DNA from: Candidatus Saccharimonadota bacterium
Lineage (GTDB): Bacteria > Patescibacteriota > Gracilibacteria > UBA1369 > 2-02-FULL-48-14
Direction: 5' to 3'
Assembly (NCBI GenBank): GCA_041661045.1
Contig: JBAZVE010000001.1
Span: forward strand, 1,230,001 to 1,262,000
DNA: 32,000 nt
The first letter of the stretch is position 1. Every line of letters starts with the position of its first letter. Positions 194 through 16,560 of the stretch are shown in pieces. The position numbers and the translations under genes are program-made. The notes under the pieces are model-generated. The model was not told the origin of the DNA. It did not search any database and was given only the letters and a program-made list of their open reading frames with translations.

Positions 194-2008
194 TTATTTA
201 AAACTTTCAAAAATTACCTTCATGTCATCAAAAATAGCTGGTTTTTCTTCCAAGGCAATTTCAACATATGCTTTTCTAACTTTTATCTTATCTTCTTCAA
301 AAATTCTACCGCAGAAAATAGAAAATATTTCTTTCCCTTGAAATTCATTTTTCCAATTATCGCTCGAGAGTGCTGCTTCGAGCCTGGCCTGTTCAGAATC
401 CATCCACTGCTTTAAATTTTCTTCCGACAAATCTGTGGATAACTTGGATATAGAGCTCAGGGTACTGCTAATCATTTCTAATTTTATTGTATCTAAATCT
501 TTTGTTTCTACTGCTCGAATTGTCGATATTTCAAAACCGTGATTTAAAGCAAGGTATTCCTTGGTATTTTGTAGCAAATTTAATTTTAGCGATTCGGTCG
601 CAATTTCTTTGATTTTCGTCTCAATGAAAGTCTGTGTTAGGTCTGTCTTTTTCGCTGTTATACAAAATCTTTCCGCGACTTTAAAAAGAATTTCTGAATC
701 CAGGAAATAATTTTCAAGGTGTCTCTTTTTTAGGCATTTTATTTTACCGCTAGTTTCAACAGTACTTATTTGTTCATCCGAAAGACCATCCCTATCGCGA
801 ATCAGGTAAAGATCTATTCCAAAAATTGAATTTCTTATCTCTTGCTCAAATGCATTAAGAGCAATTAATTTTTCAACGGATCCTATTGGTACAATCTTTG
901 CTTCTGGTAGATATTTTTGTGCAATTGCATGGTAGGTCAAACGGTCTAAACTGCTGCCCTCACCCTCAACAAAAACAAGTTTCTTACCTACAGCAAAGAG
1001 GCCAAGATTCTCTCCAATCAATTGCACGAGTTCTTTATGGCTGTGATTAAGCTCGCTAAGCTTATGTGCTTGGTTTGAACCCGTTTGCACAGAGTCTATA
1101 AAATAAACGTCTCCGGTAGAATAATATGTGGAAATTAAATCAGCAGAGTGCGTTAGGAAGATAAATTGATTCGTATGGTCACCAATGGTTTTTAAAGTTT
1201 CTATTAACTTAAAAGCCAATGTTGGATGTAGATGTAGTTCCGGCTCATCAACAATAATTACGGAATGTTTTATATCTTTTCTCGCAACATCAAAAATCAC
1301 TTTAACGACTTCTTGCTCACCAGAGCTTAGAGAGCTAAACGGTAAAATATTACCAGTGGTGTCTTTATATTGAAATTCTCGTGGGGATTCTGGTTTGATG
1401 TCCTGTAATTCCTTCCCTGGTAATAGTTGCACAAAAATTTCCTTGTACTTATCCAATGGATCAGGATTCTCCTGAATGATTCTTTCACCTTCGCTTGGAT
1501 TTTTCTTTAGCTCGTCTGCAAGTTTTTTATCGCGGACTGCATATTTTTGATAAATATATGTCATGAAATCCTGCCACCTACTTGTAAAGTTCCCATAACC
1601 CCAATTATAGGGGGTGTCCGAGTCATCCGGATCTGATCCGAGCCAATTGACCTGCGGATAGTTCACTGTTTTTATATTTCTGTCGGAGTCAATCTGAACA
1701 AGAGAGCCAACATATCTAGCCCGGCCTCCAAAACGTCGATTCTGTATATACTGCTGTAAAGATTGATTTACTTGTCCTTGTTGAGTGGTAATGGAAGTTC
1801 CTCGAAAGGCAGTAGTTTCCTCTTCCCTTGTGGCTAGCACCGTTAGCGTCAACTGTGAGTCTCCTTGCAAAGTTTGTACTAACGCTCCTTTTAGTCTCGT
1901 TTTCCCCGACCCATTTGCTCCCGCAATTATCACGATATCACCTAAATTTTCAAACTTTAGATTTTTAATCGGCGGAAAATCTTTGATTTCTAGTGACTGT
2001 ATTTTCAT
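194..2008 (-). CDS. Single-chain ABC/SMC-type ATPase fused to a C-terminal TOPRIM/DUF4435-like nuclease domain (OLD-family or fused PARIS AriA-AriB-like)
   Basis: 604-aa ORF. The ATPase half has Walker A GANGSGKT, ABC signature LSSGEQ, Walker B IIVDEPELHLHP and H-loop LTHS. The C-terminal half has LVFVEGEGSSLD (TOPRIM Glu) and LIRDRDGLSDEQ (DxD). It sits in the operon between the dinD-like gene and hsdS2. Confidence 0.75.
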   Translation of the reverse strand: MKIQSLEIKDFPPIKNLKFENLGDIVIIAGANGSGKTRLKGALVQTLQGDSQLTLTVLATREEETTAFRGTSITTQQGQVNQSLQQYIQNRRFGGRARYVGSLVQIDSDRNIKTVNYPQVNWLGSDPDDSDTPYNWGYGNFTSRWQDFMTYIYQKYAVRDKKLADELKKNPSEGERIIQENPDPLDKYKEIFVQLLPGKELQDIKPESPREFQYKDTTGNILPFSSLSSGEQEVVKVIFDVARKDIKHSVIIVDEPELHLHPTLAFKLIETLKTIGDHTNQFIFLTHSADLISTYYSTGDVYFIDSVQTGSNQAHKLSELNHSHKELVQLIGENLGLFAVGKKLVFVEGEGSSLDRLTYHAIAQKYLPEAKIVPIGSVEKLIALNAFEQEIRNSIFGIDLYLIRDRDGLSDEQISTVETSGKIKCLKKRHLENYFLDSEILFKVAERFCITAKKTDLTQTFIETKIKEIATESLKLNLLQNTKEYLALNHGFEISTIRAVETKDLDTIKLEMISSTLSSISKLSTDLSEENLKQWMDSEQARLEAALSSDNWKNEFQGKEIFSIFCGRIFEEDKIKVRKAYVEIALEEKPAIFDDMKVIFESFK

Positions 2009-2054
2009 AAGTAAATTATTAATTCAATTTTTTGCTAACCACTCACTATTTGCA

Positions 2055-2927
2055 CTAATCCTTAAGTAATTTTGCTTTTGTGATTTGAGGTGAAGTCACA
2101 TCAACTTTCAGAGTCTTCTTGCCCCCAATTCTTTTTTTCACTTCGTCTATGTGTTCTTGGGCGGATAAATCCTCGGGCATGGTCCCTCCGATGTCTTTTA
2201 TAGCCTTTCTGACTTTTCCACCCACAATAAAATGGGCTTTTGAGGCACGACTCTCACCAATGGCCTCTCCCTCTTGCAATTTCGATCTTAGCTGTTCATC
2301 AGTCTGAGTTATCCTAAAGAGGTTAGCCGCTAACTCTGTGGCACCAGCTCTATCAAGTATTTTATCGTCACCAATCTGTTTTTGCTCTTGTATTTGTTTA
2401 TTAGTTAGCCCGTATAAGCCCAAATAACCAGCATCATTGAACTTACCGAAATTTCTTACTCCGGAATCCTGGGCTGTTTTGAACAGTTTTTTATTATGAT
2501 TTGTGACCTCATCTCGGGTTAAAAGCCTTTTTTCATCATCCGTTAAGGCCTCAAGGAGTTCTTGTTTCCTGGTTTGAGTGGCAAAATAGGTTTGAGCCAG
2601 CGCAATAGGCTCTTTCGTCGAATCTCCATTTTGAGCAATAAGGTAACAAGCGTACCTGGAAAGCTTATAGTCAGGTATTGACTGAATGGCTCCTTTGCCG
2701 CCTTTTATCACTTTGCTGATGTCGGCAAAGTGATCCTCAACAGGTTGTTCACTTAACGAACATGCAGTTTTTGCTTTTTCGATGACATTCTCAAAATTAC
2801 TCCACTTGCTATATTCTAAAATCACCATCAATTCTCTCGCTTCCCAATATTCCACGCCGTGCTCGTCAACTTTTTTGATGTCTTCAAAACCTTTATTCGG
2901 AGACATAGGGCTTAAATTTTTGATCAT
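2055..2927 (-). CDS. dinD: DNA-damage-inducible protein D (DinD)-like protein
   Basis: 290-aa ORF that can be aligned by eye along most of its length with E. coli DinD as I recall it. Shared segments include W.AReL...LgYS....F..vi.kAk.AC, DHF, LSRYACYL.AQNGD, AQTYFA.QTR.QEL, DEKRL..R.E...HNK.L, TELAANLFR.TQT and GGTMPE.L. Confidence 0.8.
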   Translation of the reverse strand: MIKNLSPMSPNKGFEDIKKVDEHGVEYWEARELMVILEYSKWSNFENVIEKAKTACSLSEQPVEDHFADISKVIKGGKGAIQSIPDYKLSRYACYLIAQNGDSTKEPIALAQTYFATQTRKQELLEALTDDEKRLLTRDEVTNHNKKLFKTAQDSGVRNFGKFNDAGYLGLYGLTNKQIQEQKQIGDDKILDRAGATELAANLFRITQTDEQLRSKLQEGEAIGESRASKAHFIVGGKVRKAIKDIGGTMPEDLSAQEHIDEVKKRIGGKKTLKVDVTSPQITKAKLLKD

Positions 2928-2937
2928 ACTTTATCAA

Positions 2938-4449
2938 TTAAGAAATATTCAACATTTTGAGATGTCCCTCCATCTCTTTTTCCAGCCTTTGAAGTTCTGG
3001 TTCGAGCTTTTTAAGTTCAGCTAGGTTTGCTGCGATGTCGATTTCTTCTTCCTCCTCAAAAGTGTCCACATATCTTGTGATATTCAGGTTGTAGTCATTT
3101 TCTTTGATCTCTGCCAACATCACTTTCCTGGAAAACTTGTCGATTTCTTCACGATTTGCGTAAGTATTGTAGATTTTATCAATATTTTCTTCACTCAACG
3201 AATTTTGGGCTTTACCCTGCTTGAATTCTTTTGAGGCTTCTATGAACAGGATGTCTTTCCTCTTTTCGTTGGCACCGCCTGTTTCTCGTGATCTATCTAA
3301 AATCAAAATGGCGACAGGAATACCGGTTGTTTGAAAAAGTCCGGCAGGAAGACCGATGACGGCGTCAACACTATTTTCTTCTATGAGGGATTGTCGAATT
3401 TTGCCTTCAGCTCCTCCTCGGAATAAGACTCCGTGAGGTACAATTACAGCCACTCGGCCGCTCTTAGCTTTGGCGGTTTCCACCATATGTGTAATGAAAG
3501 CGAAGTCACCTTTATCCTTCGGAGGAACACCACGGAAGAAACGGTTATATTTGTCGTTTTCTGCATTCTCAGCTCCCCATTTTTTGAGAGAGAAAGGGGG
3601 GTTCGCTATTACTACATCAAATTTCATCAAACGATCATCTTCAACAAGTAAAGGGTTGTTTAAAGTATCGCCCCATTCAAGCCTTGTGGAATCCTTGCCG
3701 TGCAGGAACATGTTCATACGCGCCAACTGATAAGTTGAACCGGTGCTTTCCTGCCCATATAAGGCGTAGTTTTTAGATCCCTGCTTTTCGATTTCTTCTC
3801 CAGCCAATAACAGAAGACCCCCTGATCCACAGGCCGGATCACAAATACGGGCACCTTCTTTGGGCTGAGCAAGTTTTGCCAATAATCGTGAAATATGACG
3901 TGGTGTGAAAAACTCACCCGCTTTCTTTCCGGCTTGTGATCCAAATTGACCGATCATGTACATGTAGGCGTTTCCGATCACATCATCGTCCATGCTGCTC
4001 AGATCAATCGTATGAAAGTCATTTATAAGATGGCGAATCATCTTGTTGCGCTGCTCAACTTTTCCCAGAGTCGATTCTGAATTGAAGTCCAAACCGCTAA
4101 AAATTCCTTCAAGTTTTCCTTTATTATTCTCTTCTATTCGGTGCATCACTTTATTCATCTCTTCTCCGATATTGTCTTTTTCGTGAATCGAGTAGATGTA
4201 ATCAAAGGAAGAATCTGGAGGGAGATAGAATCGGCTGGACTTCATTTTCTCCTGAATACGGCCTTCATCATTGCCAAGACGATCTTGGAGTTTTTGATGC
4301 TCCTTCTTTGCAAGATCACTTAGATACTTAAAGAAAAGCATGGCCAAAACATAGTCTTTGTATACCGCAGCATCCAAGGAAGTACGGGAAGAGTCCGCAG
4401 CACTCCAGAGGACTTTGTTTAAATGTTCTTGAGTCGTTGAATCGCTCAT
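2938..4449 (-). CDS. hsdM: Type I R-M N6-adenine DNA methyltransferase subunit HsdM
   Basis: 503-aa ORF with SAM motif I ICDPACGSGGLLL and catalytic motif IV VIANPPFS. The HsdM N-terminal region reads LWSAAD..R......YKDYVL.MLFFKYLSD, and the tail is a coiled coil. The start is 4 nt after the hsdS stop. Confidence 0.93.
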   Translation of the reverse strand: MSDSTTQEHLNKVLWSAADSSRTSLDAAVYKDYVLAMLFFKYLSDLAKKEHQKLQDRLGNDEGRIQEKMKSSRFYLPPDSSFDYIYSIHEKDNIGEEMNKVMHRIEENNKGKLEGIFSGLDFNSESTLGKVEQRNKMIRHLINDFHTIDLSSMDDDVIGNAYMYMIGQFGSQAGKKAGEFFTPRHISRLLAKLAQPKEGARICDPACGSGGLLLLAGEEIEKQGSKNYALYGQESTGSTYQLARMNMFLHGKDSTRLEWGDTLNNPLLVEDDRLMKFDVVIANPPFSLKKWGAENAENDKYNRFFRGVPPKDKGDFAFITHMVETAKAKSGRVAVIVPHGVLFRGGAEGKIRQSLIEENSVDAVIGLPAGLFQTTGIPVAILILDRSRETGGANEKRKDILFIEASKEFKQGKAQNSLSEENIDKIYNTYANREEIDKFSRKVMLAEIKENDYNLNITRYVDTFEEEEEIDIAANLAELKKLEPELQRLEKEMEGHLKMLNIS

Positions 4450-4453
4450 AATT

Positions 4454-5026
4454 TCAAGTGGTTAGAAGTTGGTTTATGGTTCCTTCAGTAATACTTTTGC
4501 TGAGGTCTATTTTTCGGTTTAAAAGTTTTTCTCTTTCCTGCCAATTATCACTTATCTCAATAATCATTTTTTGGATGGCTAATGATGGGACAGGAATGGA
4601 TAACTCTTCCAAGGCTCCTCGCAAAATGGTTTTGATAGTGCTACCCGTAAGAATTTTCTGAATACTATTTTGTCCTGCTTCGGAATTTAGGTAAATGGAC
4701 AAATATTTGGGGAGGACATTTTTGTCTTTAATTTTCAATATAAAGAGTGATGAGGCGGCGATAATACCTTCTGGCTCTTTAACGAAAACCCCTGCCCGAA
4801 AAACTCCTCGTGAAGAGAGAAGAACATCGTTTTTGGTAATAAATGCGTTTGTACGAGGCAAAGTTAAGTTGACGCGGATCAATTCAGGATAATTTATACT
4901 GCCGTCGTCATTTATGTTTTTTGCTAGTAAAACCTGAGTTTCACCCCGAGGATCACTTTTTAGAGCTTCTCGAAAGGTATAGCCTGCTATGATTTCCGAA
5001 ATTTCTTTGAGACATTTACTTTGCAT
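4454..5026 (-). CDS. hsdS: Half-size type I R-M specificity subunit HsdS (one target-recognition domain plus one conserved helical region)
   Basis: 190-aa ORF immediately upstream of hsdM. One TRD-like region (EISEIIAGYTF...) is followed by the conserved helix IPVPSLAIQKMIIEISDNWQEREKLL. It is about half the length of a canonical two-TRD HsdS. Confidence 0.75.
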   Translation of the reverse strand: MQSKCLKEISEIIAGYTFREALKSDPRGETQVLLAKNINDDGSINYPELIRVNLTLPRTNAFITKNDVLLSSRGVFRAGVFVKEPEGIIAASSLFILKIKDKNVLPKYLSIYLNSEAGQNSIQKILTGSTIKTILRGALEELSIPVPSLAIQKMIIEISDNWQEREKLLNRKIDLSKSITEGTINQLLTT

Positions 5027-5032
5027 GCTTCA

Positions 5033-5062
5033 TGTATACAGCTATTACAAAATTAATGTCAA
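5033..5062 (-). promoter_or_regulatory. Candidate sigma70-type promoter of the R-M operon
   Basis: On the minus strand, TTGACA (5062-5057, consensus -35) is followed by an 18-nt spacer and TATACA (5038-5033). The hsdS ATG lies only 6 nt further at 5026, which implies a leaderless or near-leaderless transcript. Confidence 0.4.
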
Positions 5063-5200
5063 TACTTTTCAATGCACACCGTGAGCATACTGCATTTATG
5101 ATGCCTGCTGCGTGAGGTAAATTTCGTCCTTCCAAATTGGTTGGCTGAATCATACAGTACCCACTTGGTTAGGCAACCTTTTAAATGCTACACTTCCCCC

Positions 5201-5959
5201 ATGTCCAAATACTACAATCCTCACCGCACGCGGAATCTCTACGATCCTAAGTCGTCGGAGCCGTTTCGAATCAGTCGCTCTAAAATCGACCTGTTCATAA
5301 AATGTCCGAGGTGTTTTTATTTGGATCGGAGGTTGGGAGTGGGGCAGCCGCCGGGGTATCCGTTTTCGTTGAATTCGGCGGTGGATACGCTGCTGAAGAA
5401 AGAGTTTGATCTGCATAGGGCGAAAGGGACGGCGCATCCGTTGATGGAGGCGTATGGGCTGGAGGCCGTGCCGCTGGTGGATGAGCGAATGGATGAGTGG
5501 AGGGATTCGTTGCGGAGAGGAATTACCTATGAGTTTCCGGGGACGAATCTTGTGCTGACGGGAGGAGTGGATGATGTGTGGGTGAAGCCGGATGGCGAGC
5601 TGCTGATTGTGGACTACAAGGCGACTTCCAAAGAAGAGGAGGTTTCGCTCGATGCGGAGTGGCAGGACGGCTACAAGCGGCAGATGGAAATTTATCAATG
5701 GCTGTTTAGGAGGAATGGCTTTCGCGTTTCGGACACGGGCTACTTTGTGTACTGCAACGGCGACACGGACAAGGCCGCGTTTGATGGGAAATTGGAGTTC
5801 AGCATTAAGCTGATTCCGTATACCGGCGACGATGGGTGGATTGAGGGTGTTGTGGGGGCTTTGTATAAGTGTTTGCAGGGCGGAGAGATTCCGGCATCCG
5901 GCAAAGAGTGCGACTTTTGCGCGTACCGGGAGGCGGTGAAAGGGGTGGAGCACTTGTAA
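5201..5959 (+). CDS. PD-(D/E)XK nuclease, Cas4/RecB-family-like, with four cysteines (CxxC...CxxC)
   Basis: Motifs GGVDDVWV (Asp), LIVDYKAT (D-x-K) and RQMEIYQWL (RecB-family QxxxY). CPRC lies near the N-terminus and CDFC near the C-terminus. I prefer the ATG at 5201 (MSKYYNP...) over the TTG at 5141 used in the ORF track. Confidence 0.75.
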   Translation: MSKYYNPHRTRNLYDPKSSEPFRISRSKIDLFIKCPRCFYLDRRLGVGQPPGYPFSLNSAVDTLLKKEFDLHRAKGTAHPLMEAYGLEAVPLVDERMDEWRDSLRRGITYEFPGTNLVLTGGVDDVWVKPDGELLIVDYKATSKEEEVSLDAEWQDGYKRQMEIYQWLFRRNGFRVSDTGYFVYCNGDTDKAAFDGKLEFSIKLIPYTGDDGWIEGVVGALYKCLQGGEIPASGKECDFCAYREAVKGVEHL

Positions 5960-6018
5960 AACTTTTCCTTACCCATCTCCCCTGCTTGTGTTAAAGTAGG
6001 CACGAGCTTTTTTCACGC

Positions 6019-8481
6019 ATGACTTATTTCATCATTGCACTTGTTGCTATTGGAGGCGTTGCACTCGTTGGGGGCTTCCTTTATTTCCTGCGGGCTGAGG
6101 CGGATCGCAAGCGCTCGCTTTCGATGTCGTTCCTAAAAATTCGTATTCCTAAAAAGGAATCTAAAGAAGATAAAGAGCAGGATACGGAGTCCATGGGTTC
6201 GCAACGGGACTTTAAAGACACACTGGGGGTGATGAAGCAGTTTTTTGAATCTTTGGCTTCGCTGGAAGATGAGACTTGGCGCAAGCATTTTTTTGGGAAT
6301 GATTTCATCTCTTGTGAGTATGTCATTCGCGACAATTTGATCGACTTTTTCTTGGTGGTTCCTCACCACCTCACCACCGTAGTGGAGAAGCAGCTCACGG
6401 CTTTTTATCCGGATTGCTACATTGAAGAAGAGCCCGATTACAATCTCTTTCAAGAGGGGTCTAAGGCCGCTTATGCCACCTTCACCCTCAGCAAGTCTTA
6501 CTCCTACCCCATCCGCACCTATCAACGAATGACGGCGGATCCGCTCAACACCATGACCAATGTGCTTTCCAAGTTGGAGACCTATGAAACTGCAGGCATT
6601 CAAATCATGATTCGCCCCCTACACAACCACTGGCAACACAAGGGGCGCAAGCTGGCTAAAACCGTGATGGAAGATAAACATGAGGGCTTTTTGCACGGCT
6701 TCAATCCTTTGGTTTGGCTTGGAGATATGTTGAATATTCTTTTCCGCGGAGAGGCGGGGAAAGAGCACGAAGCCGGAGGCGGGCGCACCACTTCGGTTTT
6801 GGATGAACAAGTGAAGGCGATTGAGGAAAAAAATACTCAAGTGGGATTTGAAACGGTGATCCGTTTGGTGGCGGTTTCCAATGCCCATAATAAAGCAGAA
6901 GCGCTGCTGCACAGCATGAAGACCGCCTTCGCCCAGTACACCACCACCGACAACAATGCTCTTTCGGCACGGGATAATTATTTGGGGGATTTGGTGCATC
7001 ACTTTTTGATGCGTGACATGAAACGACCGCTGCGCTTCCTCTTTTCAGAGAAAATGATTTTGTGTCCGGAAGAGCTCGCAAGCCTGTTCCACCTCCCCAA
7101 TATTCGTTACAATCGCGCCCCCACCATCAACTGGCAAAATTATAAAATTGCCCCTCCCCCTTCCAACATTCCGGATGAAGGGATTTTGTTGGGACACAAT
7201 ATTTACCGTGGAGTGAAGAAGGAAATCCGCATGAAGAATGAGGATCGTTTCCGTCACTTTTATGTGATTGGACAAACGGGTACCGGTAAATCTTCCATTT
7301 TACAGGTGATGGTTCGCCAGGATCTACAGAATGGCAAAGGGATTTGTGTGGTGGATCCACACGGACAGCTCATCGATGATATTCTTCCGTTCATTCCTCG
7401 AGAACGCGCCGATGATGTCATTTATTTCAATCCAGCCGACCTCGATCGACCGCTGGGGCTCAACTTGCTGGAAGCCGAGACTCCGGAGGAACGCGACTTG
7501 GTGGCCATGGACGCCATGAACATGATGATCAAATTGTTTGATGAAGAAATATTTGGACCCCGCATTCAGGATTATTTTAGAAACGGGTGTTTGACTTTGA
7601 TGGAATACAAAGACGGCGGCTGTCTCACCGATATGGTTCGCCTCTTTACGGATGATGATTTCCAGTATGAGCGTACCAAAGACCTCAAAAACCCCATCGT
7701 GAAATCGTTTTGGGATCAGCAGATGGCCAAGACCGGGGCTCGAGAAAAGCAGGAAATGATTCCGTACTTTGCCGCCAAGTTCGGTCAGTTTGTGACCAAC
7801 GGAATGATGCGTAACATCATTGGGCAAACGCACAGCGCCTTTGATTTTACCGATGTGATGAGCACCAACAAAATCTTGCTCATGAATCTTTCGAAGGGAG
7901 AAACCGGAGACATCAACAGTAAACTGTTGGGTATGATTATTGTGTCCAAGCTCCAAGTGGCGGCCTTGCGCCGGCAGCGGCTTCCCAAAGAGATGCGAAA
8001 GGATTTCTTCCTCTACATCGATGAGTTCCAAAACTATGTGACCGATTCCATTGAAGTGATTTTGTCCGAAGCTCGAAAGTACCGTCTGGGCCTCGCCATG
8101 GCGCATCAGTATTTGGCGCAGCTGGAAGCGGATGGAAAGAAGGGCAAGGGCGTGAACCTGAAAGATGCCGTATTCGGGAATGTGGGAAGCATCATGGCGT
8201 ACAAAATTGGCGCGCAAGATGCGGAGTACATGGCCAAAGAAATGGCGCCGGTGTTCAGTGATCAAGATCTCATCAACATCGATAAGTACAAGGCCGTGAT
8301 GAAACTTTCCATCGACACGCAGCCCTCCAAACCGTTCAGCATTGTTCCGCTGAATCCTTATCTTGATAAGGGCGACCCTGAAGCGGCCGAAGCCTACAAA
8401 CAGCTCTCCCGCCTCAAATACGGCCGCGATAGAGAGTTTGTGGAACGGGAGGTGTTTAGGCGCCTCGGAACTGTCATTTAA
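6019..8481 (+). CDS. Membrane-anchored VirD4/TraG/TraD-like (type IV coupling protein-like, FtsK/HerA-superfamily) ATPase
   Basis: 820-aa ORF with an N-terminal TM helix (FIIALVAIGGVALVGGFLYFL). Walker A is VIGQTGTGKSS followed by VVDPHGQ, Walker B is FFLYIDEFQNY, and RKYRLGLAMAHQYLAQL is typical of T4CP/TraD. Confidence 0.75.
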   Translation: MTYFIIALVAIGGVALVGGFLYFLRAEADRKRSLSMSFLKIRIPKKESKEDKEQDTESMGSQRDFKDTLGVMKQFFESLASLEDETWRKHFFGNDFISCEYVIRDNLIDFFLVVPHHLTTVVEKQLTAFYPDCYIEEEPDYNLFQEGSKAAYATFTLSKSYSYPIRTYQRMTADPLNTMTNVLSKLETYETAGIQIMIRPLHNHWQHKGRKLAKTVMEDKHEGFLHGFNPLVWLGDMLNILFRGEAGKEHEAGGGRTTSVLDEQVKAIEEKNTQVGFETVIRLVAVSNAHNKAEALLHSMKTAFAQYTTTDNNALSARDNYLGDLVHHFLMRDMKRPLRFLFSEKMILCPEELASLFHLPNIRYNRAPTINWQNYKIAPPPSNIPDEGILLGHNIYRGVKKEIRMKNEDRFRHFYVIGQTGTGKSSILQVMVRQDLQNGKGICVVDPHGQLIDDILPFIPRERADDVIYFNPADLDRPLGLNLLEAETPEERDLVAMDAMNMMIKLFDEEIFGPRIQDYFRNGCLTLMEYKDGGCLTDMVRLFTDDDFQYERTKDLKNPIVKSFWDQQMAKTGAREKQEMIPYFAAKFGQFVTNGMMRNIIGQTHSAFDFTDVMSTNKILLMNLSKGETGDINSKLLGMIIVSKLQVAALRRQRLPKEMRKDFFLYIDEFQNYVTDSIEVILSEARKYRLGLAMAHQYLAQLEADGKKGKGVNLKDAVFGNVGSIMAYKIGAQDAEYMAKEMAPVFSDQDLINIDKYKAVMKLSIDTQPSKPFSIVPLNPYLDKGDPEAAEAYKQLSRLKYGRDREFVEREVFRRLGTVI

Positions 8482-8492
8482 CCCCTCTGTTT

Positions 8493-9113
8493 ATGGCTTT
8501 AAGTAAAAATAAATCCATCGGTCTTCTGCTTATTATCCTTCCGCCGATTTTTATCCTGGTGGCGCTGTTTTGTTTTGCCCTGGTGAATATGATTTTGGGG
8601 TCCAATCCGTTGGCGAATGAAGAGATCTCCGAGCTCCAGGCTGCCTTGAACACCAGCCTTGCCTTTATCGGTTTGCTTGGAACCCTGGGCGTGATGATTG
8701 GAATTCCTCTTGGAATCTTTTTCTTGGCGCGAAAAGACACCACCGCCGCACGGCTCTCGCAAGTGGATGCTCGTTCCGGAAAAGGTCCTTCTTCCGTGAT
8801 TCCTGCTGAGCTTAAAGGATGGAACTGGGGTGCGGCCGGACTCACTTGGATTTGGGGCGCGTACCACAGTGTTTGGATTTCTCTTTTATCTTGGATCTCT
8901 CCGATCAATCTCTTTTGGTGGATTGTGCTTGGCCTCCATGGCAATGAATGGGCGTGGCGAAGCCAAGAATGGGCCAGTGTCCAAGAGTTTAAAAAAGCTC
9001 AAGACAAATGGAAAATCTGGGGAATCTTCTTTGTGGCACTCAAGGTGGGCGCCTTTGTCCTTGCCCTGATCTTTGGGATCACTGTCGTTTTGTTGTCTAG
9101 CTTTACAGGTTAG
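8493..9113 (+). CDS. Polytopic membrane protein of unknown function
   Basis: 206-aa ORF starting 12 nt after the ATPase stop. It has several hydrophobic helices (LLLIILPPIFILVALFCFALV, LAFIGLLGTLGVMIGIPLGIFFL, W-rich GLTWIWGAYHSVWISLLSWI, IFFVALKVGAFVLALIFGITVVLL). Confidence 0.6.
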   Translation: MALSKNKSIGLLLIILPPIFILVALFCFALVNMILGSNPLANEEISELQAALNTSLAFIGLLGTLGVMIGIPLGIFFLARKDTTAARLSQVDARSGKGPSSVIPAELKGWNWGAAGLTWIWGAYHSVWISLLSWISPINLFWWIVLGLHGNEWAWRSQEWASVQEFKKAQDKWKIWGIFFVALKVGAFVLALIFGITVVLLSSFTG

Positions 9114-9276: not shown

Positions 9277-10512
9277 ATGATCGTCAAAAAAACCTTTGCG
9301 CTCGTATTCAGTTCTCTGTTCATGGCTTTGCAAGTCAGTGGGACTTTATTGGCCTTGGCGGAAGACAGTGTTCCCCCTCCTCCCGAAGAAGAGGCTGAGT
9401 ATTACATACAAACCTTCATTATTACGGCCTACTATTCTCCTTTGCTCGGTCAACAAAACTATGTGACCGGTTCGTATGAAGGGGATATTACTTTAAATGG
9501 AAGGGGGACCAATGGAGCGGATGGAACTCCGGTTTTTCCGGGTATGATCGCCGCTCCCAAGAGCTACCCTTTTGGCCTTAAGATCTATATCCCCGGAGTA
9601 GGAACCACCTCAGTCAATGATAGAGGAGGTGCCATTGTAACCGCCGGAAATCGAGGAAATTCTTATGACCGTTTGGATATTTGGATGGGACATGGAGATG
9701 AAGGTCTCCGTGCAGCACTCGGTTGGGGAAAACGAACGGTGGAATGCCGTGTCTATGGGGTTAAGCCTGAGATTGAAGCTGCCGTTTACTTCGATCAATA
9801 CCTGACCGTTGAAAACATCTACACTCAAACCTTTTTGAACACTTTGGAATTCCCCGATGACCTTTATTATGGAGATTCCGGAGAGGAAATCACCAAAATG
9901 CAGCAATATTTGGTGGATTGGGGTTACCTCACCGAAACCAATGGCTTTTATGGAGCGGACACCGCTCAAGCCTTGTTTGAATTCCAAACCGACTACGCCA
10001 TTGTTTCAGATTCCGAAGAGCTTGGAGCCGGTCATTTTGGACCTCAAACTCGTCGAAAATTTGACGATTTGATCCTGGGCGGCGTTTCGGACGAAATGGT
10101 TAAATTGCAAAAGGGACAGAGCTTGATGAGTAAGTATCCTCACTTGTTTGAAGAGAAGGAAAGCTTTGGAACCGCACTCACGCTTGGGGACAGCGGAGAA
10201 ACCGTGACTCGCCTGCAAGAAGAACTGCAAACGCTTGGATTCTTGCGCATTGCTCCCACCGGACTTTTTGGAGAAAGCACCGCGCACGCCCTTTATAAAT
10301 TCCAACAATCTCAAGGCATCGTGACCAGCGAAACCGACAGTGGAGCCGGTTACCTCGGGCCTCAAACGCGCAGCGCGCTCAACTCCATTTTGGCCAGCCG
10401 TTACGAAAGCAAAAGTCTCATGGCCTACCAACGCGAAGAACTCGAAGCGGGTCGCTTGGCCCTTATGATGCCGGACAAGACTTTGGCGAGCCTCCAAAAG
10501 GAGGATTTCTAG
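9277..10512 (+). CDS. Secreted 3D-domain protein with peptidoglycan-binding (PG_binding_1-like) repeats
   Basis: Signal peptide (...LLALAEDS). The 3D-domain-like core reads ITAYYSP...G.NG.G..GADGTPV.PGMIAAP..YPFG.KIYIPG.G...V.DRGGAI. Repeated PG-binding units include GDSGEEITKMQQYLVDWGYL...ADTAQALFEFQ and GDSGETVTRLQEELQTLGFL...ESTAHALYKFQ. Confidence 0.8.
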   Translation: MIVKKTFALVFSSLFMALQVSGTLLALAEDSVPPPPEEEAEYYIQTFIITAYYSPLLGQQNYVTGSYEGDITLNGRGTNGADGTPVFPGMIAAPKSYPFGLKIYIPGVGTTSVNDRGGAIVTAGNRGNSYDRLDIWMGHGDEGLRAALGWGKRTVECRVYGVKPEIEAAVYFDQYLTVENIYTQTFLNTLEFPDDLYYGDSGEEITKMQQYLVDWGYLTETNGFYGADTAQALFEFQTDYAIVSDSEELGAGHFGPQTRRKFDDLILGGVSDEMVKLQKGQSLMSKYPHLFEEKESFGTALTLGDSGETVTRLQEELQTLGFLRIAPTGLFGESTAHALYKFQQSQGIVTSETDSGAGYLGPQTRSALNSILASRYESKSLMAYQREELEAGRLALMMPDKTLASLQKEDF

Positions 10513-10713: not shown

Positions 10714-11124
10714 TTAGGGAACCTCCGTTACCGTGATTTCTCGTTCATCCCCGCCCTTGTGCTCTAGGTGGATTCGTAAATGGGGTCGTTGGAGCTGTGC
10801 TTCTATTTTTTCCGGCCATTCGATCACCAAGTGTTTCCCCTGCGCCAAGTGTTCTTCCAGTTGATCCAAAGTGAAGGGGTCTAGCTTTTCGAGTCTGTAC
10901 AAATCGTAATGAATGAGGCCAGGGTGTTCTGAAATCAATGTGAAGGTTGGGCTTTTGATGGCGCTTGCTTCAATGCCGAGTGCCTCCGCCAAGCCTTTGA
11001 CGAGCGTGGTTTTTCCCGCCCCCAAGTTCCCGTAGAGCAGCCAAATTTTGTGCTCCGGGTACTGCTCAAGCAAGGATTTTGCCAAAGCCATGGTCTCCGC
11101 GGCGGTTTGAGTGGTATTTTGCAT
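10714..11124 (-). CDS. tsaE: tRNA t6A37 threonylcarbamoyladenosine biosynthesis ATPase TsaE (YjeE)
   Basis: 136-aa ORF with P-loop LYGNLGAGKTTLVKG, then SPTF.L..E, HYDLYR and IEWPE, the standard TsaE motif series. Confidence 0.9.
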   Translation of the reverse strand: MQNTTQTAAETMALAKSLLEQYPEHKIWLLYGNLGAGKTTLVKGLAEALGIEASAIKSPTFTLISEHPGLIHYDLYRLEKLDPFTLDQLEEHLAQGKHLVIEWPEKIEAQLQRPHLRIHLEHKGGDEREITVTEVP

Positions 11125-11174: not shown

Positions 11175-13349
11175 ATGAAGACACTCCGCAGTCAGCTCCA
11201 AAATCGTCATGTTCGAGAGTGGATTTCGCTCTTAACCCTTTTGGGAGTTTCGGTCTTTGGAGTGAATTACCGTTACGAAACACACCTGCTCTTCACATCC
11301 CTCACCGGCACGGAGGAGCATGATCCTTTTGATGGAACGGTGATGCCGATTCAGGAATCTCCGCGTTGGACGCACTTGACGGATGAGCAGTGGGACATGA
11401 GTTACCAAGAGCTTCCCAAGTCTGCGCTTGGACCTATTCCGGAATATCGCAATGATTATTTGACTTTTGACTCTGATGACTTGGTGTGGGGAAATGCTGA
11501 ACACGATATCATTCGAGACACCAAAATCACCTTCTCCGTGGCTTATGGGGACAACTATGAGTTCGACGACTCTGGTGAAGGATCTGGAACTCACCCCGCT
11601 GTGGACATTAAAGTTCCCGAAAATACGCCGGTCTACAGCATTGCCAACGGAGTTGTGATCAGTGCCGGGACTTCCAGCAGTTTTGGAAAATATATTGTGG
11701 TGAGACACAACGGTGTCCCCGATCCCAATTTCCCAGGACAAACCACCACCTTGGATAGCAGTTATTCTCACCTTTCTGATTTCTTTGTGACGGAGGGAGA
11801 GGAAGTAGCCAAGGGTGAAGTGATTGGCCAAGTGGGAGACACGGGAACGGCCACGACTTATCATCTGCATTTTCAGCTCGATACTGACGATGCGCCTTGG
11901 CATCCCTATTGGCCTTTCACCAGTGCAGAGGCCAGTGCCGCCGGATACAGTTTTTGGGAGGCGGTGACTGCCGGAGTTGGAGAAGAGAATATGTACAGAT
12001 ACACGCGCAATCCTTTGGATTTTGTCCAAGACCATTTGGATGAGGACGCCACGCTCACGGATGCGCCCATTGTTTCAACCGTAGAAAGCACGGCCACTCC
12101 AGAAGAAGAGGAGCCGGAGGAAGAGGAAACCCCCACTGAAGAGGAAGTGGATTCTTCCGTGGTGAGCATCGACTTTAGTGACCTCGAAATCAGTACCCCC
12201 GCGTTCATTATGCCGGGGCAAAACGAAAGCATCCGCATCACCCTTTTGGACGAGGCGGGCGAAGTGAGAAAGGACGCCGATTTTGAAGGCTCCATGACCC
12301 TCACTGTTTCGGACGAAAGCACCGCCAAGCTGAACCGTAGCTCGATCAATGCGGCGGACTTTGAGGATGGAGTCGCGGAGCTCTCGCTTTACGCGGACCA
12401 TGAAGGAGAAGTGACCCTTACGGCAACGGTTGCCACGCGCAGTTACTATTCTTCCACCGTGTATGTGATCGCCAGCATTGAACCTTTTGCCAAGTTTGGC
12501 GTTGCGCACGATGGGTTTTTTGTTCCCGGCAAGCCGGAAAGCATTCAAATTCAATCTCAAGACCTCACCGGTAAGCCCACTCCAGGATTTTATGGAGATG
12601 GAACCATTGAGCTCGACCTTGTGCAGGGATCCGGATCGTTTTCTAAGGATAAGTTCACTAAAAAGGATTTAACTACCGGTATTGCCACGGTGGATTTCAC
12701 CTCTGATTCCGATGAAAATGTGATCATTCGCGTGACTTATGGAACCAAGGTGACCGAAAGCAGCACCCTGGAATCTCAGCTCTTTAGTGATGTTTCCGAA
12801 CTGCATGAATTTTATACTTCTGTGAGCTACTTGTTTGAAAAAGGCACGGTTCAGGGTTATCCCGACGGTTCCTTTAAGCCCGACAATACTGTTTCCCGCG
12901 TGGAGGCGCTCAAGTTCATCTTCAGCGGTCTCGACCAAGGAGTGAACAGCGGACTCACCGTTAGCTTCAGCGACACCTCAAATGGTGAGTGGTATTCCGA
13001 TGTCTTAGCCACCGCCGCCTCCAATGGCGTGGTGCAGGGTTACCCCGATGGTTCCTTTAAGCCCACTCAAGGGGTGAACCGCGTGGAATTCCTCAAGATG
13101 ATTGGCACCTTAGGCCTCGAAATCGACCCTGTGGTTGAAGAAGATCCTTACGAGGATGTGAACAACCTCTCTTGGTACGCTCCTTTCGTTGCGTATGCCA
13201 AGGAAAAGAACCTCTTCCCCATCAGTGGTGATTTGTTCTACCCCGGGGACCCCATGAGCCGCATTGAAGTGGCCGAGGTCATTTACCGAATGATCGTGGT
13301 GGAACAAAATGGCGGAACCCCGTACACCAGCCTCATGCAGGCAAATTGA
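11175..13349 (+). CDS. M23 family metallopeptidase with Ig-like middle region and three C-terminal SLH repeats
   Basis: 724-aa ORF with an N-terminal TM helix. M23 motifs are HPAVDI (HxxxD) and YHLHFQL (HxH), followed by an acidic PEEEE linker. Three SLH-like repeats are present (FSDVSELHEFYTSVSYLFEKGTVQGYPDGSFKPDNTVSRVEALKFI, FSDTSNGEWYSDVLATAASNGVVQGYPDGSFKPTQGVNRVEFLKMI, YEDV..LSWYAPFVAYAKEKNLF). Confidence 0.85.
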   Translation: MKTLRSQLQNRHVREWISLLTLLGVSVFGVNYRYETHLLFTSLTGTEEHDPFDGTVMPIQESPRWTHLTDEQWDMSYQELPKSALGPIPEYRNDYLTFDSDDLVWGNAEHDIIRDTKITFSVAYGDNYEFDDSGEGSGTHPAVDIKVPENTPVYSIANGVVISAGTSSSFGKYIVVRHNGVPDPNFPGQTTTLDSSYSHLSDFFVTEGEEVAKGEVIGQVGDTGTATTYHLHFQLDTDDAPWHPYWPFTSAEASAAGYSFWEAVTAGVGEENMYRYTRNPLDFVQDHLDEDATLTDAPIVSTVESTATPEEEEPEEEETPTEEEVDSSVVSIDFSDLEISTPAFIMPGQNESIRITLLDEAGEVRKDADFEGSMTLTVSDESTAKLNRSSINAADFEDGVAELSLYADHEGEVTLTATVATRSYYSSTVYVIASIEPFAKFGVAHDGFFVPGKPESIQIQSQDLTGKPTPGFYGDGTIELDLVQGSGSFSKDKFTKKDLTTGIATVDFTSDSDENVIIRVTYGTKVTESSTLESQLFSDVSELHEFYTSVSYLFEKGTVQGYPDGSFKPDNTVSRVEALKFIFSGLDQGVNSGLTVSFSDTSNGEWYSDVLATAASNGVVQGYPDGSFKPTQGVNRVEFLKMIGTLGLEIDPVVEEDPYEDVNNLSWYAPFVAYAKEKNLFPISGDLFYPGDPMSRIEVAEVIYRMIVVEQNGGTPYTSLMQAN

Positions 13350-13394: not shown

Positions 13395-13868
13395 ATGGAG
13401 TCTTTTTCTGCACTTACAGGTCGCTTGGAGGCCTTGCAGCGTTCTCAATATCACATCGACCTCTTGCAGGACGAGATAGCCGAAGAAAGAGACCCCACTG
13501 TGCTCGCAGATATGCGTGAGGAATTGCACGATCGTTTGGTCCAGCTTGGGAATACGAATCTTAGAGATCTTAACCCAAACGAGCTCACCTACCTCACCCA
13601 GACCGCTCGAGCTATTCAAGCCTTGGAATCGCAGGGCTTTAGGTATGAGATTATCCATCAACTGGATATGATTCCCCCTTCTGCCCGCTACTCGCGTTTA
13701 GCTAAAGCCGTCTTCAATCTTCAAAGCGCTTTACGAAATGGTAATAAGTCCAAAGGACAAAAGATCGTTGCGAGCATAAAGTTGCTGCTCATGGAAGTTC
13801 CATCGCTCCGCACTCCCTTGGTGACAGAAGTTCTTCAAACCCGCATACACCGGAGAAAAGCATCTTAA
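13395..13868 (+). CDS. Hypothetical protein (helical, no motif recognised)
   Basis: 157-aa ORF and the longest frame in this interval. Nothing in it is recognisable by eye. Confidence 0.45.
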   Translation: MESFSALTGRLEALQRSQYHIDLLQDEIAEERDPTVLADMREELHDRLVQLGNTNLRDLNPNELTYLTQTARAIQALESQGFRYEIIHQLDMIPPSARYSRLAKAVFNLQSALRNGNKSKGQKIVASIKLLLMEVPSLRTPLVTEVLQTRIHRRKAS

Positions 13869-14003
13869 CATTAACCTTATTACATGAACGCTGCACTTCT
13901 TCTTTCCCTTGCCACGACCTTCCGGGCGGCGCCAGTTGGCTTAGCCTTGAGGGGTGCGTGGATCTTGGAACCGGAAGGGTGTGGGGAGAGATGTAGTTTT
14001 GGC

Positions 14004-15578
14004 CTAAGACTCCAGCCTTGCCAGTTCACTGGATGCCTGCACTTTGTGAAGTACATCTTGGATGATGCCCACTACTGCACTCGCAGCTGGATCTGAGCGT
14101 AAAAACTCCAATGCTGCCACGCCGTTCATGACGGCACTCAGATCAAATCCATCTCCTAGTGTCTTCATATCAAGAGACACCTCAATCAATGAGGCTTGCC
14201 GCGTCAGTTCTTCAGAGATGCCTCTTGCCAAAGCTAAATACAAGAGTGCTTGTTCAGTAAATTCCGGGTTTTCTGCAGCGCCCTTTGCTAGCTTTTCTCC
14301 AAGATGACGAAAAAATGTAGCGATTTTAAAGCCTTCATAGAACTGTTCCACTACCGGTTCAACCTTAGCGTTTAGGATGTCCTCTGTTTCTTTAATGTGG
14401 TCCTCATTGATCCAAAAGCGGTACCAAGTGGCAAACCTGTGGGACAACTGTGGAACAATCCAAGCTAATTTTTCTGTTTTTTTCGTGAGATCTTCGAGAA
14501 AGTTCTTCCCAAGCAGCCTTTCTATAACAAGCCTTGTGCTTGCATCCTCCGGCTTCAGTCCCGATTGAAGTGCTGCTTTTCTTGCGTGGCTCTGCAAGCC
14601 TTTTTTCAAAAGTGGTCTTTGGTCTAAGTCGGGGTGAACCATTTGTAATCTCACGAAATCTATCAAACTGTTCTCCCCCAGCACCGGAGCTTTCAACTGT
14701 GATGAGGAACGCGCTTTCAGCATGGCACTCCACACATCTTCCGGGCAACCAGCCCTTTGCTCCACAGTTTGACCCAAGAAAAGCCGGTCAATAATGGCCT
14801 TGACGACAACTCTCCTTGTAGACAAATCTTCAAGGGTAAGGATGGTAGCTTTAGCCATCAGTGGAAAGTTACCCTTGGGATCCAACTGCATTTCCTTCAT
14901 GCTTAAAAATAGCTCTGAGAACCAATCTGCCAAAGTCTCCCTACGGGCAGCTGGCAACCCTACACCCACGATATAAGAAGAGTGAGCTTTGTTTATCACT
15001 CTAGCAGAGGGCGTACTCACCTTATCATCAACGTGTGGATCAAAGTTTTTTTCATAAGCAATCTTGGAACCAAACTTTGGGCCGCCTTCATCCTTGAAAT
15101 ATACATTCAAAATCTTCACAAAGAGCTGGCTTACTTCGTCGGAGAATCCTCTTGTATCAAGGTCTATGCTCTCTACTACCAAGACTAATTTGCTCGGGTC
15201 TTGCATGAATAGCTCTTCCAGAATTTTTTTGGGGTTCCTTTGCTCGGGAGGCAATACTCTAATTATTTGAGAAATCTCTGTACTGAACCCAAGAAGCGCA
15301 TCAGGTAGTCTTTCGAATTCTGGGTTGGGGAAGCTGTCTCTCAACTGTTGTGGCTCTTTATACTCAGTCGCGTCAATTTCCTCTCTTTTTTTTCTGAATG
15401 CATTTATGGCGGCTTCATCCCTCGCGACTGCCTCCCGATAAGCGTGCAGTGCCTCCTGGGCAAAAAGACCCATTTTTCCGAACTCCTCCAGTTGTTGTAG
15501 CGTTTCGGGCATGTCAACAGCAGCATCCACTCTGGTGAGTGCTGTTATTTGCCCCTCTGGTGCTGCTCCTTTACTCAT
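14004..15578 (-). CDS. Hypothetical 524-aa protein, predicted mostly alpha-helical
   Basis: Long uninterrupted ORF and the last gene of a co-directional minus-strand cluster. No signal peptide, TM helix or catalytic motif recognised. Confidence 0.65.
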   Translation of the reverse strand: MSKGAAPEGQITALTRVDAAVDMPETLQQLEEFGKMGLFAQEALHAYREAVARDEAAINAFRKKREEIDATEYKEPQQLRDSFPNPEFERLPDALLGFSTEISQIIRVLPPEQRNPKKILEELFMQDPSKLVLVVESIDLDTRGFSDEVSQLFVKILNVYFKDEGGPKFGSKIAYEKNFDPHVDDKVSTPSARVINKAHSSYIVGVGLPAARRETLADWFSELFLSMKEMQLDPKGNFPLMAKATILTLEDLSTRRVVVKAIIDRLFLGQTVEQRAGCPEDVWSAMLKARSSSQLKAPVLGENSLIDFVRLQMVHPDLDQRPLLKKGLQSHARKAALQSGLKPEDASTRLVIERLLGKNFLEDLTKKTEKLAWIVPQLSHRFATWYRFWINEDHIKETEDILNAKVEPVVEQFYEGFKIATFFRHLGEKLAKGAAENPEFTEQALLYLALARGISEELTRQASLIEVSLDMKTLGDGFDLSAVMNGVAALEFLRSDPAASAVVGIIQDVLHKVQASSELARLES

Positions 15579-15686
15579 ATTTGCAATGGATGGAATTCTA
15601 ATCTTTTAATTATAGCATTTTTTCTCTGTTAAATCCAGGCTAATCCTGCCGGTTGGCTTAGAGAGTCTCGATAAGTGATAATCCTT

Positions 15687-16448
15687 TTATCTACGCCTTG
15701 GTCTCTCCATCATCGCCTGTATGTGATTAGGGAAATCTTCTTTCCGGCCTTCCTTTTCCAGCAGGTATTGGGTTAAAGCCATCAGACTAAAACCATCTCT
15801 TAAGACTTCTTCTTGTTCAGACTCCGCAGGTTTGGTGGTGATTACGCTTTCAAGCTCTTGAAGATCAACCACCCCTTTGATAGCACCTTTTCTAACTGCA
15901 TTAGAAATCTTTTTTGCCTTTGTAATGCCGTGTCTCTGAATAGTTTTTTCTAAAACCCTGCGCCATTCACCTTCTGTGTACGCATCGGCGGCAGCATTTT
16001 CTGTTGCGTAGGCCCGTCCTTCTCCAGCGTAGTAGGCAGATGATCGTGCGCTTCCTGCATTCGATTGTTTAGGCTCTATCCCCACTGCTTTGTCGTAAAG
16101 ATGTCGATGCTCATGTACTCCTAGCAGTCCGGCCCATGTCTCCTCCACAGGAAAGGCTTTCATCATTAGAAGATTGAGGTCAGTTCGATCTGCAACAAAT
16201 ATAGGTTGTGCCGTTGTAAACAAACGATGCTCGAAAGGAATAATGCATTTGTATCCTTGAATTCCTGTACCACCTTCAACACTTATCAATCGATCCCCTT
16301 GCAACTCTACCCAAAGTACTCGACTTTTGAAACTACGCATTGTAGCTAAAAGCCTTTCATCTTCTTGGTTTCTTCCTGGAGCCGAAAGAACTTTATCCAA
16401 GCCCCTATCGTAGAGGGCGCGGGCTTCTACTTCACTTAGATGAGTCAT
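15687..16448 (-). CDS. Hypothetical protein with HExxH motif (possible zinc metallopeptidase)
   Basis: 253-aa ORF. LLGVHEHRHLYD contains HEHRH (HExxH), with Glu-containing segments (YYAGEGRAYATE) about 30 aa downstream as possible third-ligand candidates. No signal peptide. Confidence 0.55.
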   Translation of the reverse strand: MTHLSEVEARALYDRGLDKVLSAPGRNQEDERLLATMRSFKSRVLWVELQGDRLISVEGGTGIQGYKCIIPFEHRLFTTAQPIFVADRTDLNLLMMKAFPVEETWAGLLGVHEHRHLYDKAVGIEPKQSNAGSARSSAYYAGEGRAYATENAAADAYTEGEWRRVLEKTIQRHGITKAKKISNAVRKGAIKGVVDLQELESVITTKPAESEQEEVLRDGFSLMALTQYLLEKEGRKEDFPNHIQAMMERPRRR

Positions 16449-16560
16449 GAGAGAGAAATTTTATAGCCTAAACTACAATATGTTTATGGATTTGTAAAGA
16501 GCCTTCGGGCCAGGGGCTTTTGCCGTACTGAACAGTTATGAGATGCTGGGATGACAGACA

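Follow-up and report, generated by a model that had tools for sequence, protein, structure and literature searches.

The locus analysed here raises the question of whether a gene for an ATPase joined to a nuclease-like module, lodged within a type I restriction-modification (R-M) operon, acts in its own right or as a guard of the restriction system around it. The gene, called X below, lies on the minus strand at nucleotides (nt) 194-2008 of a 32,000-nt stretch of contig JBAZVE010000001.1 from a Candidatus Saccharimonadota bacterium, and this whole stretch is referred to as the window. In a preliminary description made from the sequence, X had been presented as a compact ATP-binding cassette (ABC) ATPase with a TOPRIM- or DUF4435-like C-terminal module, akin to PARIS and possibly standing guard over the R-M system. 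The reading that we prefer, and consider fairly probable, is that X is an autonomous single-chain PARIS protein, in which an ATPase sensor and latch would be joined to a TOPRIM nuclease, and that it shares a transcript with a type I R-M operon acquired from elsewhere.

An ATPase and a TOPRIM-like module in one chain

The open reading frame (ORF) of X starts with ATG and encodes 604 amino acids (aa). The AriA-like ABC ATPase half (aa 1-320, 1049-2008, minus strand as for all parts of X) was delimited by its alignment motifs and the match of its family profile to AriA; it carries the Walker A motif (G30-ANGSGK36-T37, nt 1898-1921), Q105, the signature LSSGEQ (nt 1313-1330, with L227-SSGE231), the Walker B motif (D254-E255, nt 1238-1261) and H287. 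The AriB-like TOPRIM core (aa 340-435, 704-991), placed by the topology of an AlphaFold 2 (AF2) model, by the DUF4435 and AriB matches of relatives and by BLASTP, contains FVEGE (346-350, with E348; nt 959-973), D355, IRDRD (403-407, with D405 and D407; nt 788-802) and HLENY (430-434, with E432; nt 707-721). The remainder (aa 436-604, 197-703), defined by the AF2 helices and the coverage of the AriAB model, is an all-helical C-terminal domain with the conserved residues W552 and G558. Among 25 aligned homologues (60-88% identity) the motifs are all invariant or nearly so, and the complete set of ABC ATPase motifs followed by a TOPRIM module, as first described for this 604-aa chain, could be read in both the translation and the alignment. 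X is an intact, real gene under purifying selection, since the ratio of non-synonymous to synonymous substitution rates (dN/dS) is 0.09 against a 92% identical relative and 0.075 against an 85% identical one, with low values in both halves. The protein is identical to a recorded one (P0001) from an NCBI metagenome-assembled genome named Candidatus Gracilibacteria.

The assignment of X as a single-chain, AriAB-like protein of the PARIS type draws on its PADLOC and Pfam matches together with dN/dS. The PADLOC models were used as profile matches, with the PADLOC coverage rules not applied, and the best of them is a fused AriAB model (PDLC02981, E 1.3e-58, 197 bits), whose match extends to profile position 662 of 694 and takes in the helical tail; a second AriAB model (PDLC02982) gives E 3.7e-20. 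The best model outside PARIS is PtuA (5.7e-23), followed by GajA, Old, AbiLi, the retron ATPase-Toprim, HEC-01A and MAD3 (1e-13 to 1e-16), which mostly match the ATPase part, and only GajA and ATPase-Toprim_I-B extend into the TOPRIM core among these weaker matches. The kinship with PARIS proposed earlier is therefore upheld, with the fused AriAB model ahead of Old, GajA, PtuA and AbiL. In Pfam, X matches AAA_21 (66.5 bits) and AAA_15 (56.6 bits), both past their cut-offs and within residues 1-292 only; the Pfam and NCBIfam scans of X gave ATPase families only. When the family profile was compared with PDB sequences, the best solved defence ATPase was AriA (8ux9_B, E 4e-8), aligned over aa 133-294 of X and 267-432 of AriA, a match that covers just part of the ATPase with both phmmer and the family profile. 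The matches of the full-length AF2 model in Foldseek are dominated by PtuA and retron ABC ATPases.

In its layout, which runs in one chain from an AAA_15/AAA_21 ABC ATPase through a DUF4435-type TOPRIM to a helical tail, X resembles merged PARIS (AriAB). Fused ariAB genes have been documented by Rousset et al. 2022 (PMC9122126), and two "merged" clades were described by Burman et al. 2024 (PMC11464382), although whether X and its compact relatives belong to these clades 1 and 2 is not established. As judged from its sequence, X is an ABC ATPase fused to a predicted DUF4435-type TOPRIM, that is, a merged PARIS protein (AriAB), the link being transitive for the C-terminal half. The standard defence-finder models already recognise X, and its classification is unchanged.

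The C-terminal half appears to be linked to DUF4435/TOPRIM indirectly, by several independent lines drawn from profiles, alignments and a structural model. By itself it matches PADLOC AriAB at 3.4e-24, compared with 1.9e-69 for the best relative, the score of X on this model being below those of the long proteins. Among the C-terminal halves of 41 diverse relatives, AriAB matches all 41, the stand-alone PADLOC AriB model matches 29 and Pfam DUF4435 matches 21 (best match 2.7e-11), while the OLD-like_TOPRIM family (PF20469) matches 4, all weakly. One member of the compact clade to which X belongs (P0124, 57% identical to X over aa 175-603) reaches 26.7 bits with DUF4435 against a cut-off of 27, and other members of this clade have weaker DUF4435 or OLD-like_TOPRIM matches at the expected position. 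BLASTP further aligned X with a 524-aa protein encoded on a conjugative plasmid of Campylobacter, a RefSeq "DUF4435 domain-containing protein" (E 2e-25), and the aligned motifs were Walker A, the signature, DEPELHLHP, (F/I)EGE..SLD, (R/I)DRD and (L/V)EN(Y/L)FL, which include E348, D405xD407 and E432.

The AlphaFold model of aa 322-604, built from a 44-sequence alignment, has a predicted local distance difference test score (pLDDT) of 88 and a predicted template modelling score (pTM) of 0.81. A profile search of a set of 5.8 billion proteins with the C-terminal alignment returned mostly fragments and was used solely for the structure-prediction alignment. In the modelled core, a predicted four-stranded beta-alpha-beta-alpha-beta-alpha-beta unit, the Glu ends strand 1 and the DxD ends strand 3, and the domain that follows consists of helices only (pLDDT 87-98). 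The canonical TOPRIM layout likewise puts the Glu behind strand 1 and the DxD behind strand 3. Numbered from aa 322, the conserved residues are E27, D34, D84, D86, H109, E111, N112 and Y113. For AriB, the segments 19-43, 80-87, 109-111 and 113-115 were superposed on the M5 TOPRIM RNase, and E26A is the catalytic mutant (PMC12409363). The spacing of the catalytic elements in the C-terminal module of X is that of the AriB active-site segments, with the Glu, the DxD and the E-N-Y segment at the corresponding positions.

Several results weigh against reading X as a PARIS protein with a TOPRIM nuclease. The Pfam scan of X itself (E <= 0.1) gave no DUF4435 or TOPRIM match, and the profile of the C-terminal family found no AriB among PDB sequences (E <= 10), where the top matches were spurious helical proteins. 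Foldseek gave no significant match for the C-terminal model in either PDB or BFVD; the best PDB match was the C-terminal region of OLD (6njx, E 0.11, non-significant), and AriB is absent from the 50 best matches listed for this model. Compared with E. coli B185 PARIS (AriA, 8ux9/8v45, plus AriB), of which AriA is the best solved relative of the ATPase as noted above, the insert in the ATPase of the X family is approximately 134 aa shorter, in a region whose helical domains, in AriA, form the scaffold of the hexamer (PMC11464382). The covalent fusion also rules out the release of AriB, so the activation mechanism of the two-protein system is not simply transferable to X. Finally, the compact clade is known from sequence, and its trigger, target and phenotype are putative. 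The profile and structure comparisons suggested in the preliminary description thus turned out in favour of PADLOC AriAB and of Pfam AAA_21 and AAA_15, and not of a Pfam DUF4435 match in X or a significant fold match; the profile searches did not place the C-terminal half outside TOPRIM/DUF4435, the link being the transitive one through its relatives.

The same comparisons bear on a second interpretation, according to which X would be an ATP-dependent DNA nuclease of the OLD/Gabija kind (class 1 OLD) that responds to a trigger other than an anti-restriction protein and has DNA, of the phage or of the host, in place of tRNA as its substrate. X shares the single-chain layout of ABC ATPase and TOPRIM with P2 Old and GajA, the PADLOC models of which match it at E 2e-13 and E 1e-14, respectively; the OLD C-terminal region is the best, if non-significant, fold match mentioned above, and two relatives in the compact clade match OLD-like_TOPRIM below threshold. 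The Old and GajA matches trail that of AriAB, however, by over 40 orders of magnitude, and they are confined to the ATPase in the first case (best stretch aa 244-321) and end within the TOPRIM core in the second (aa 221-419). X itself does not match the OLD-like TOPRIM family in Pfam, and the matches to DUF4435 and AriB outnumber those to OLD-like_TOPRIM among the relatives. The predicted TOPRIM sub-type is a different one. There is also no GajB-type helicase (UvrD-type) in the operon. We consider this interpretation improbable.

The best viral match of the TOPRIM type in Foldseek was an RloB-like protein (E 0.22, non-significant), and although OLD and RloB are both TOPRIM families, neither match was counted as evidence. 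X also recalls RloA/RloB of Campylobacter hsd loci and AbiL, in which an ATPase is paired with a TOPRIM-family protein and the pair lies between hsd genes (PMC2928727). These are, however, two separate genes with a TOPRIM of the RloB type, whereas X is a single gene; PADLOC AbiLi matches the ATPase of X only (E 8e-15), and RloB (PF13707) is absent from the Pfam scans of the window proteins and of the C-terminal halves of the 41 relatives.

A compact clade with a short ATPase insert

An exhaustive HMMER search returned 104 cluster representatives at E <= 1e-30, which are divided between a compact group, approximately 600-620 aa in length and with identities down to 28%, and a set of longer proteins (625-710 aa). 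Most distances between motifs are near-fixed in the family: 27 aa from the signature to Walker B, 91-100 aa from Walker B to the TOPRIM Glu, 57-58 aa from the Glu to the DxD and approximately 200 aa from the DxD to the C-terminus. The sole variable distance is the insert between Walker A and the signature, which measures approximately 197 aa in compact proteins, 225-245 aa in an intermediate set and 283-291 aa in the long group. The motif spacing of X is accordingly that of the proteins of 650-710 aa, apart from this insert, which is 197 aa in X compared with approximately 235 or 285 aa in longer AriAB proteins. By alignment, the compact clade has the shortest putative sensor/scaffold insert among the AriAB proteins examined. 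We found no description of this size series elsewhere, and a census is due before it is claimed. Having the shortest sensor insert and no subunit to release, the fused proteins of the compact clade would lend themselves to studies of how merged PARIS is activated.

The earlier suggestion that X may be a distinct minimal variant is thus retained in part, in that a compact clade exists which differs by its shorter insert between Walker A and the signature only. X is not the minimal form, since fused versions of 524 aa occur on plasmids. One such ATPase-DUF4435 protein, 25% identical to X, is encoded at 3914-5488 of locus L106, on plasmid pCNZW441b1 of Campylobacter novaezeelandiae, and similar matches of the 524-aa type were found on 14 further conjugative plasmids of Campylobacter (C. 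jejuni and C. coli). The plasmid and phage collections contained no close relatives of X, only ones of approximately 25% identity. The hosts of the compact clade belong to Patescibacteria, Bacteroidota, Pseudomonadota, Planctomycetota, Actinomycetota, Cyanobacteria, Chloroflexota and others, and this broad range therefore indicates horizontal spread.

The restriction operon and the place of X within it

As the preliminary description had stated, X is embedded in a type I R-M operon, the order on the minus strand being hsdS'-hsdM-dinD-X-hsdS, with all genes co-oriented and tightly packed (gaps of 4, 10, 46 and 10 nt). The first gene is a half-size hsdS with one target-recognition domain (4454-5026, 190 aa), which matches Pfam Methylase_S (2.7e-13) and many PADLOC Specificity_I models and has a counterpart in two related loci, L081 and L002. 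It is followed by hsdM (2938-4449), a type I methyltransferase gene identified by TIGR00497 (290 bits, cut-off 243) and by Pfam N6_Mtase (1.4e-105) and HsdM_N, and by a second embedded cargo gene, dinD/Bro-N (2055-2927), which matches NCBIfam DinD NF008573 (321 bits, cut-off 242), PADLOC PDC-S13 (E 7e-101) and Pfam Bro-N. Beginning 10 nt past the stop of X is the 5' end of a second, full-length hsdS (1-183), cut by the window edge; its N-terminus is 34% identical over 53 aa to that of a 408-aa Methylase_S gene in the same position in L081. All four genes are on the minus strand. HsdM is 91% identical between the window and L081, the N-terminus of the downstream specificity subunit only 34%, and the sequences suggest that the recognition domain of the downstream hsdS has probably been swapped. 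The hsdR gene is outside the window; orthologous operons have it downstream. A promoter and terminator scan gave only weak terminator-like sites on the minus strand, all inside coding sequence, and was uninformative, with counts near the shuffled expectation. The block of four genes holding the R-M and PARIS functions has 37-42% G+C compared with 45-54% elsewhere in the window, with a shift near 5030-5150, and because of this difference the block (194-5026) looks like, and is consistent with, a horizontally acquired island.

Relatives of X occupy the same position elsewhere. In L081, the copy P0002 (92% identical to X) stands in the order hsdS'-hsdM-BroN-X-hsdS-(75 aa)-NYN; in L082, P0004 (85%) in the order BroN-X-hsdS-BroN-hsdR, the left end of the locus being cut so that the hsdS side only is seen; and in L002 a copy of 65% identity in the order hsdS'-hsdM-X-hsdS-BroN-hsdR-YgjP. 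The order is hsdM-X-hsdS for P0006 (L086, 76%) and hsdM-X-hsdS-hsdR, with hsdR of the EcoEI_R_C type, for both P0011 (L088, 75%) and P0022 (L090, 69%). X is thus lodged between hsdM and hsdS in the window and in these six loci (in L082 on the hsdS side only), and its start overlaps the hsdM stop in L086, L088 and L090. A more distant copy in L010 (44%) follows the specificity gene, in the order hsdR-hsdM-RhuM-AbiJ-hsdS-X. X is 75-76% identical to the P0006 and P0011 copies, whereas the adjoining HsdM proteins are merely 28-29% identical; in L002 the corresponding values are 65% for X and 74% for HsdM. Since X remains at 75-76% where HsdM is at 28-29%, it has been exchanged between unrelated type I families into the same slot. 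The incongruence of the X and HsdM phylogenies means that X was captured repeatedly into the slot between hsdM and hsdS, of which we found no earlier description and for which a census is due before it is claimed.

The dinD/Bro-N gene shuffles its place in these operons, which, with M, D, X, S and R standing for hsdM, dinD/Bro-N, X, hsdS and hsdR, read M-D-X-S in the window and L081, D-X-S-D-R in L082 and M-X-S-D-R in L002. A PADLOC Specificity_I model (PDLC03083) has an N-terminal part, positions 5-278 of 717, that the DinD/Bro-N domain matches as well, and because of this match the domain is taken to be sometimes fused to HsdS.

The linkage of X to R-M genes varies across the family. No conserved partner gene was found across 57 loci, the commonest neighbour being an HsdM homologue, and the neighbours in close-clade reference genomes (n=97, Pfam) are mostly unrelated, with type I R-M genes at 2 of 15 loci. 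Type I R-M genes lie within 2 kb at approximately 11 of 35 unique loci of the close clade, compared with some 3-4 of 40 distant loci of the compact clade, in a sample that is small and non-random; the homologues are to this extent enriched at R-M loci, and the first proposal stands on this point. In a neighbour-joining tree built with no bootstrap, 9 of the 12 members of the sub-clade that contains the window are linked to R-M genes, eight of them to type I genes, with two type I families intermixed, and one beside a type III-like Res/Mod pair. The other branches mostly lack such a linkage. Even within the R-M-rich sub-clade, P0010, P0014 and P0007 (74-76% identity) stand alone, with housekeeping genes or an integrase nearby.

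These distributions allow the guard role to be weighed. In its strongest form, X would be a dedicated guardian physically coupled to the Hsd proteins, in the manner of PrrC in EcoprrI: the M and S (and possibly R) subunits would hold X latent, and a perturbation by an anti-restriction factor would fire it. The presence of X in one and the same slot of two or more unrelated type I families, the 9 of 12 R-M-linked members of the sub-clade, and the overlapping or abutting position of X relative to hsdM and hsdS (-4 to 16 nt) are all in line with such a coupling, and PrrC, which aborts infection by attacking tRNA once an anti-restriction factor has fired it, is a precedent (PMC12707154). PrrC and X share an ABC-type ATPase and a nuclease effector inside a type I hsd operon. 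They differ in that PrrC has another nuclease domain, with no TOPRIM, and is almost exclusively embedded (10.1101/2024.01.29.577857), unlike X with its many stand-alone relatives; approximately two thirds of the close relatives are non-embedded, and neither PrrC nor RloC is among the best 25 of 115 PADLOC matches to X. More directly, the lone relatives of 74-76% identity have no R-M genes within 8 kb, and because they stand alone in the same sub-clade, the latency of X cannot depend on Hsd proteins. X has also moved between HsdM proteins just 28% identical, a finding that speaks against any specific interface between the proteins, and the PARIS ATPase is itself both latch and sensor (PMC11464382). 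A physically coupled guardian is therefore unlikely. X is probably autonomous, since close relatives stand alone, and the guard role advanced in the preliminary description is a putative one. No dependence on R-M genes is indicated, given that relatives of 74-76% identity stand far from them.

At the opposite extreme, X could be a pure passenger, the junction of hsdM and hsdS being a general landing pad that offers cargo expression and mobility with no functional tie to restriction. Unrelated cargo does occur in the same operons (DinD/Bro-N, RhuM, AbiJ-like, NYN and DpnI-like genes), embedded genes are frequent in type I R-M systems (10.1101/2024.01.29.577857), and the majority of homologues lie outside R-M loci. 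The proportion of R-M-linked members, approximately 30% in the close clade and 75% in the window sub-clade, is nevertheless far beyond what chance would give with one or two hsd loci per genome (a background that was estimated, not computed). Moreover, E. coli PARIS is triggered by inhibitors of type I restriction (PMC9122126; PMC12707154), which supplies a ready selective reason for the association, and we regard a mere passenger as very unlikely.

That relatives of X recur in the same slot of otherwise unrelated R-M operons speaks more strongly for selection having linked PARIS to type I restriction than does mere co-occurrence in defence islands. It is conceivable, though doubtful, that a compact single-chain PARIS sub-lineage has become specialised for type I R-M operons and might detect blocked restriction by a more direct route than stand-alone PARIS, for instance by sensing DNA-mimic inhibitors jointly or in competition with the M2S complex. 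Such a sub-lineage would be the TOPRIM equivalent of PrrC and a natural system for studying how fused PARIS is activated with no subunit released.

Other genes accompany the relatives of X. Past the hsd genes, L088 carries a DpnI-like gene and a serine recombinase (7281-9107) and L081 an NYN-domain gene (6963-7466), and in L002 a YgjP-like peptidase follows hsdR. This post-hsd cargo suggests that the X-bearing related operons are mobile, multi-cargo islands. The type I operon of L010 (2496-11818) holds three cargo genes, the AbiJ-like one combining AbiJ_NTD3 and Abi_C. Near a stand-alone relative of 75% identity, L083 contains a further AAA_21 ATPase gene (394 aa) accompanied by a small partner, and also a gene for a UvrD-type helicase (2665-7737); these may form a separate defence cluster.

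Possible mode of action and the rest of the window

On the reading of X as an autonomous single-chain PARIS protein, a mode of action can be proposed by analogy with the two-protein E. coli system, in which AriB nicks tRNA and halts translation once a phage protein is sensed (PMC11464382, PMC12409363). The N-terminal ABC ATPase would be both sensor and latch, and the C-terminal DUF4435-type TOPRIM would be a two-metal nuclease that the ATPase part holds inactive until a phage protein binds, the triggers known so far being anti-restriction DNA mimics such as Ocr. An ATP-dependent rearrangement would then allow two TOPRIM domains to pair and cut host tRNA, so that translation stops and the infection aborts. 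X would work with no partner genes while being co-transcribed with the hsd operon from its slot between hsdM and hsdS, and because of this co-transcription a phage that disarms restriction would meet a second layer driven by the same promoter. The trigger, the tRNA target, the activation of the fused form and the guard role are all modelled on the E. coli system and are to be taken as putative.

Earlier publications have put forward both the fusion of PARIS and its embedding, as a back-up, in restriction or BREX loci. A "guilt-by-embedding" preprint reports known defence systems and candidates, PDC-S13 included, embedded in type I R-M, BREX and DISARM loci (10.1101/2024.01.29.577857), and a review groups PARIS and PrrC as "RM guardian systems" (PMC12707154). 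The window adds a small-genome, uncultured bacterium in which a DinD-like candidate and an abortive-infection nuclease of the PARIS type are layered within a type I restriction operon, an arrangement predicted by the guilt-by-embedding work.

In the remainder of the window, the genetic code was considered with regard to the Gracilibacteria label. Gracilibacteria are expected to read UGA as glycine. Translation with code 25 (UGA = Gly), under which the ORFs would have been mis-called, was rejected, as ORFs of table 11 tile the window and TGA is the stop codon of 10 of the 29; the label and the expected code do not both hold for the window. The only tRNA gene, tRNA-Arg (TCT) at 29470-29545 on the minus strand, lies far from the island and for this reason does not suggest itself as the site of integration.

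The island is adjoined on the opposite strand by the gene of an 820-aa protein (6019-8481, plus strand) with weak matches to coupling proteins of the TrwB/VirD4 type and to ATPases of the HerA type, which may be part of a mobile element or of a DNA-uptake apparatus. The ORFs of 267, 206, 157, 524, 253 and 220 aa at 5150-5953 (minus strand), 8493-9113 (plus strand) and 13395-17223 have no Pfam match (E <= 1e-4). Further on, tsaE (10714-11124) is flanked by genes for a protein with peptidoglycan-binding domains (9277-10512, plus strand) and for an M23 peptidase with S-layer-homology repeats (11175-13349, plus strand), both of which are cell-envelope genes of the host.

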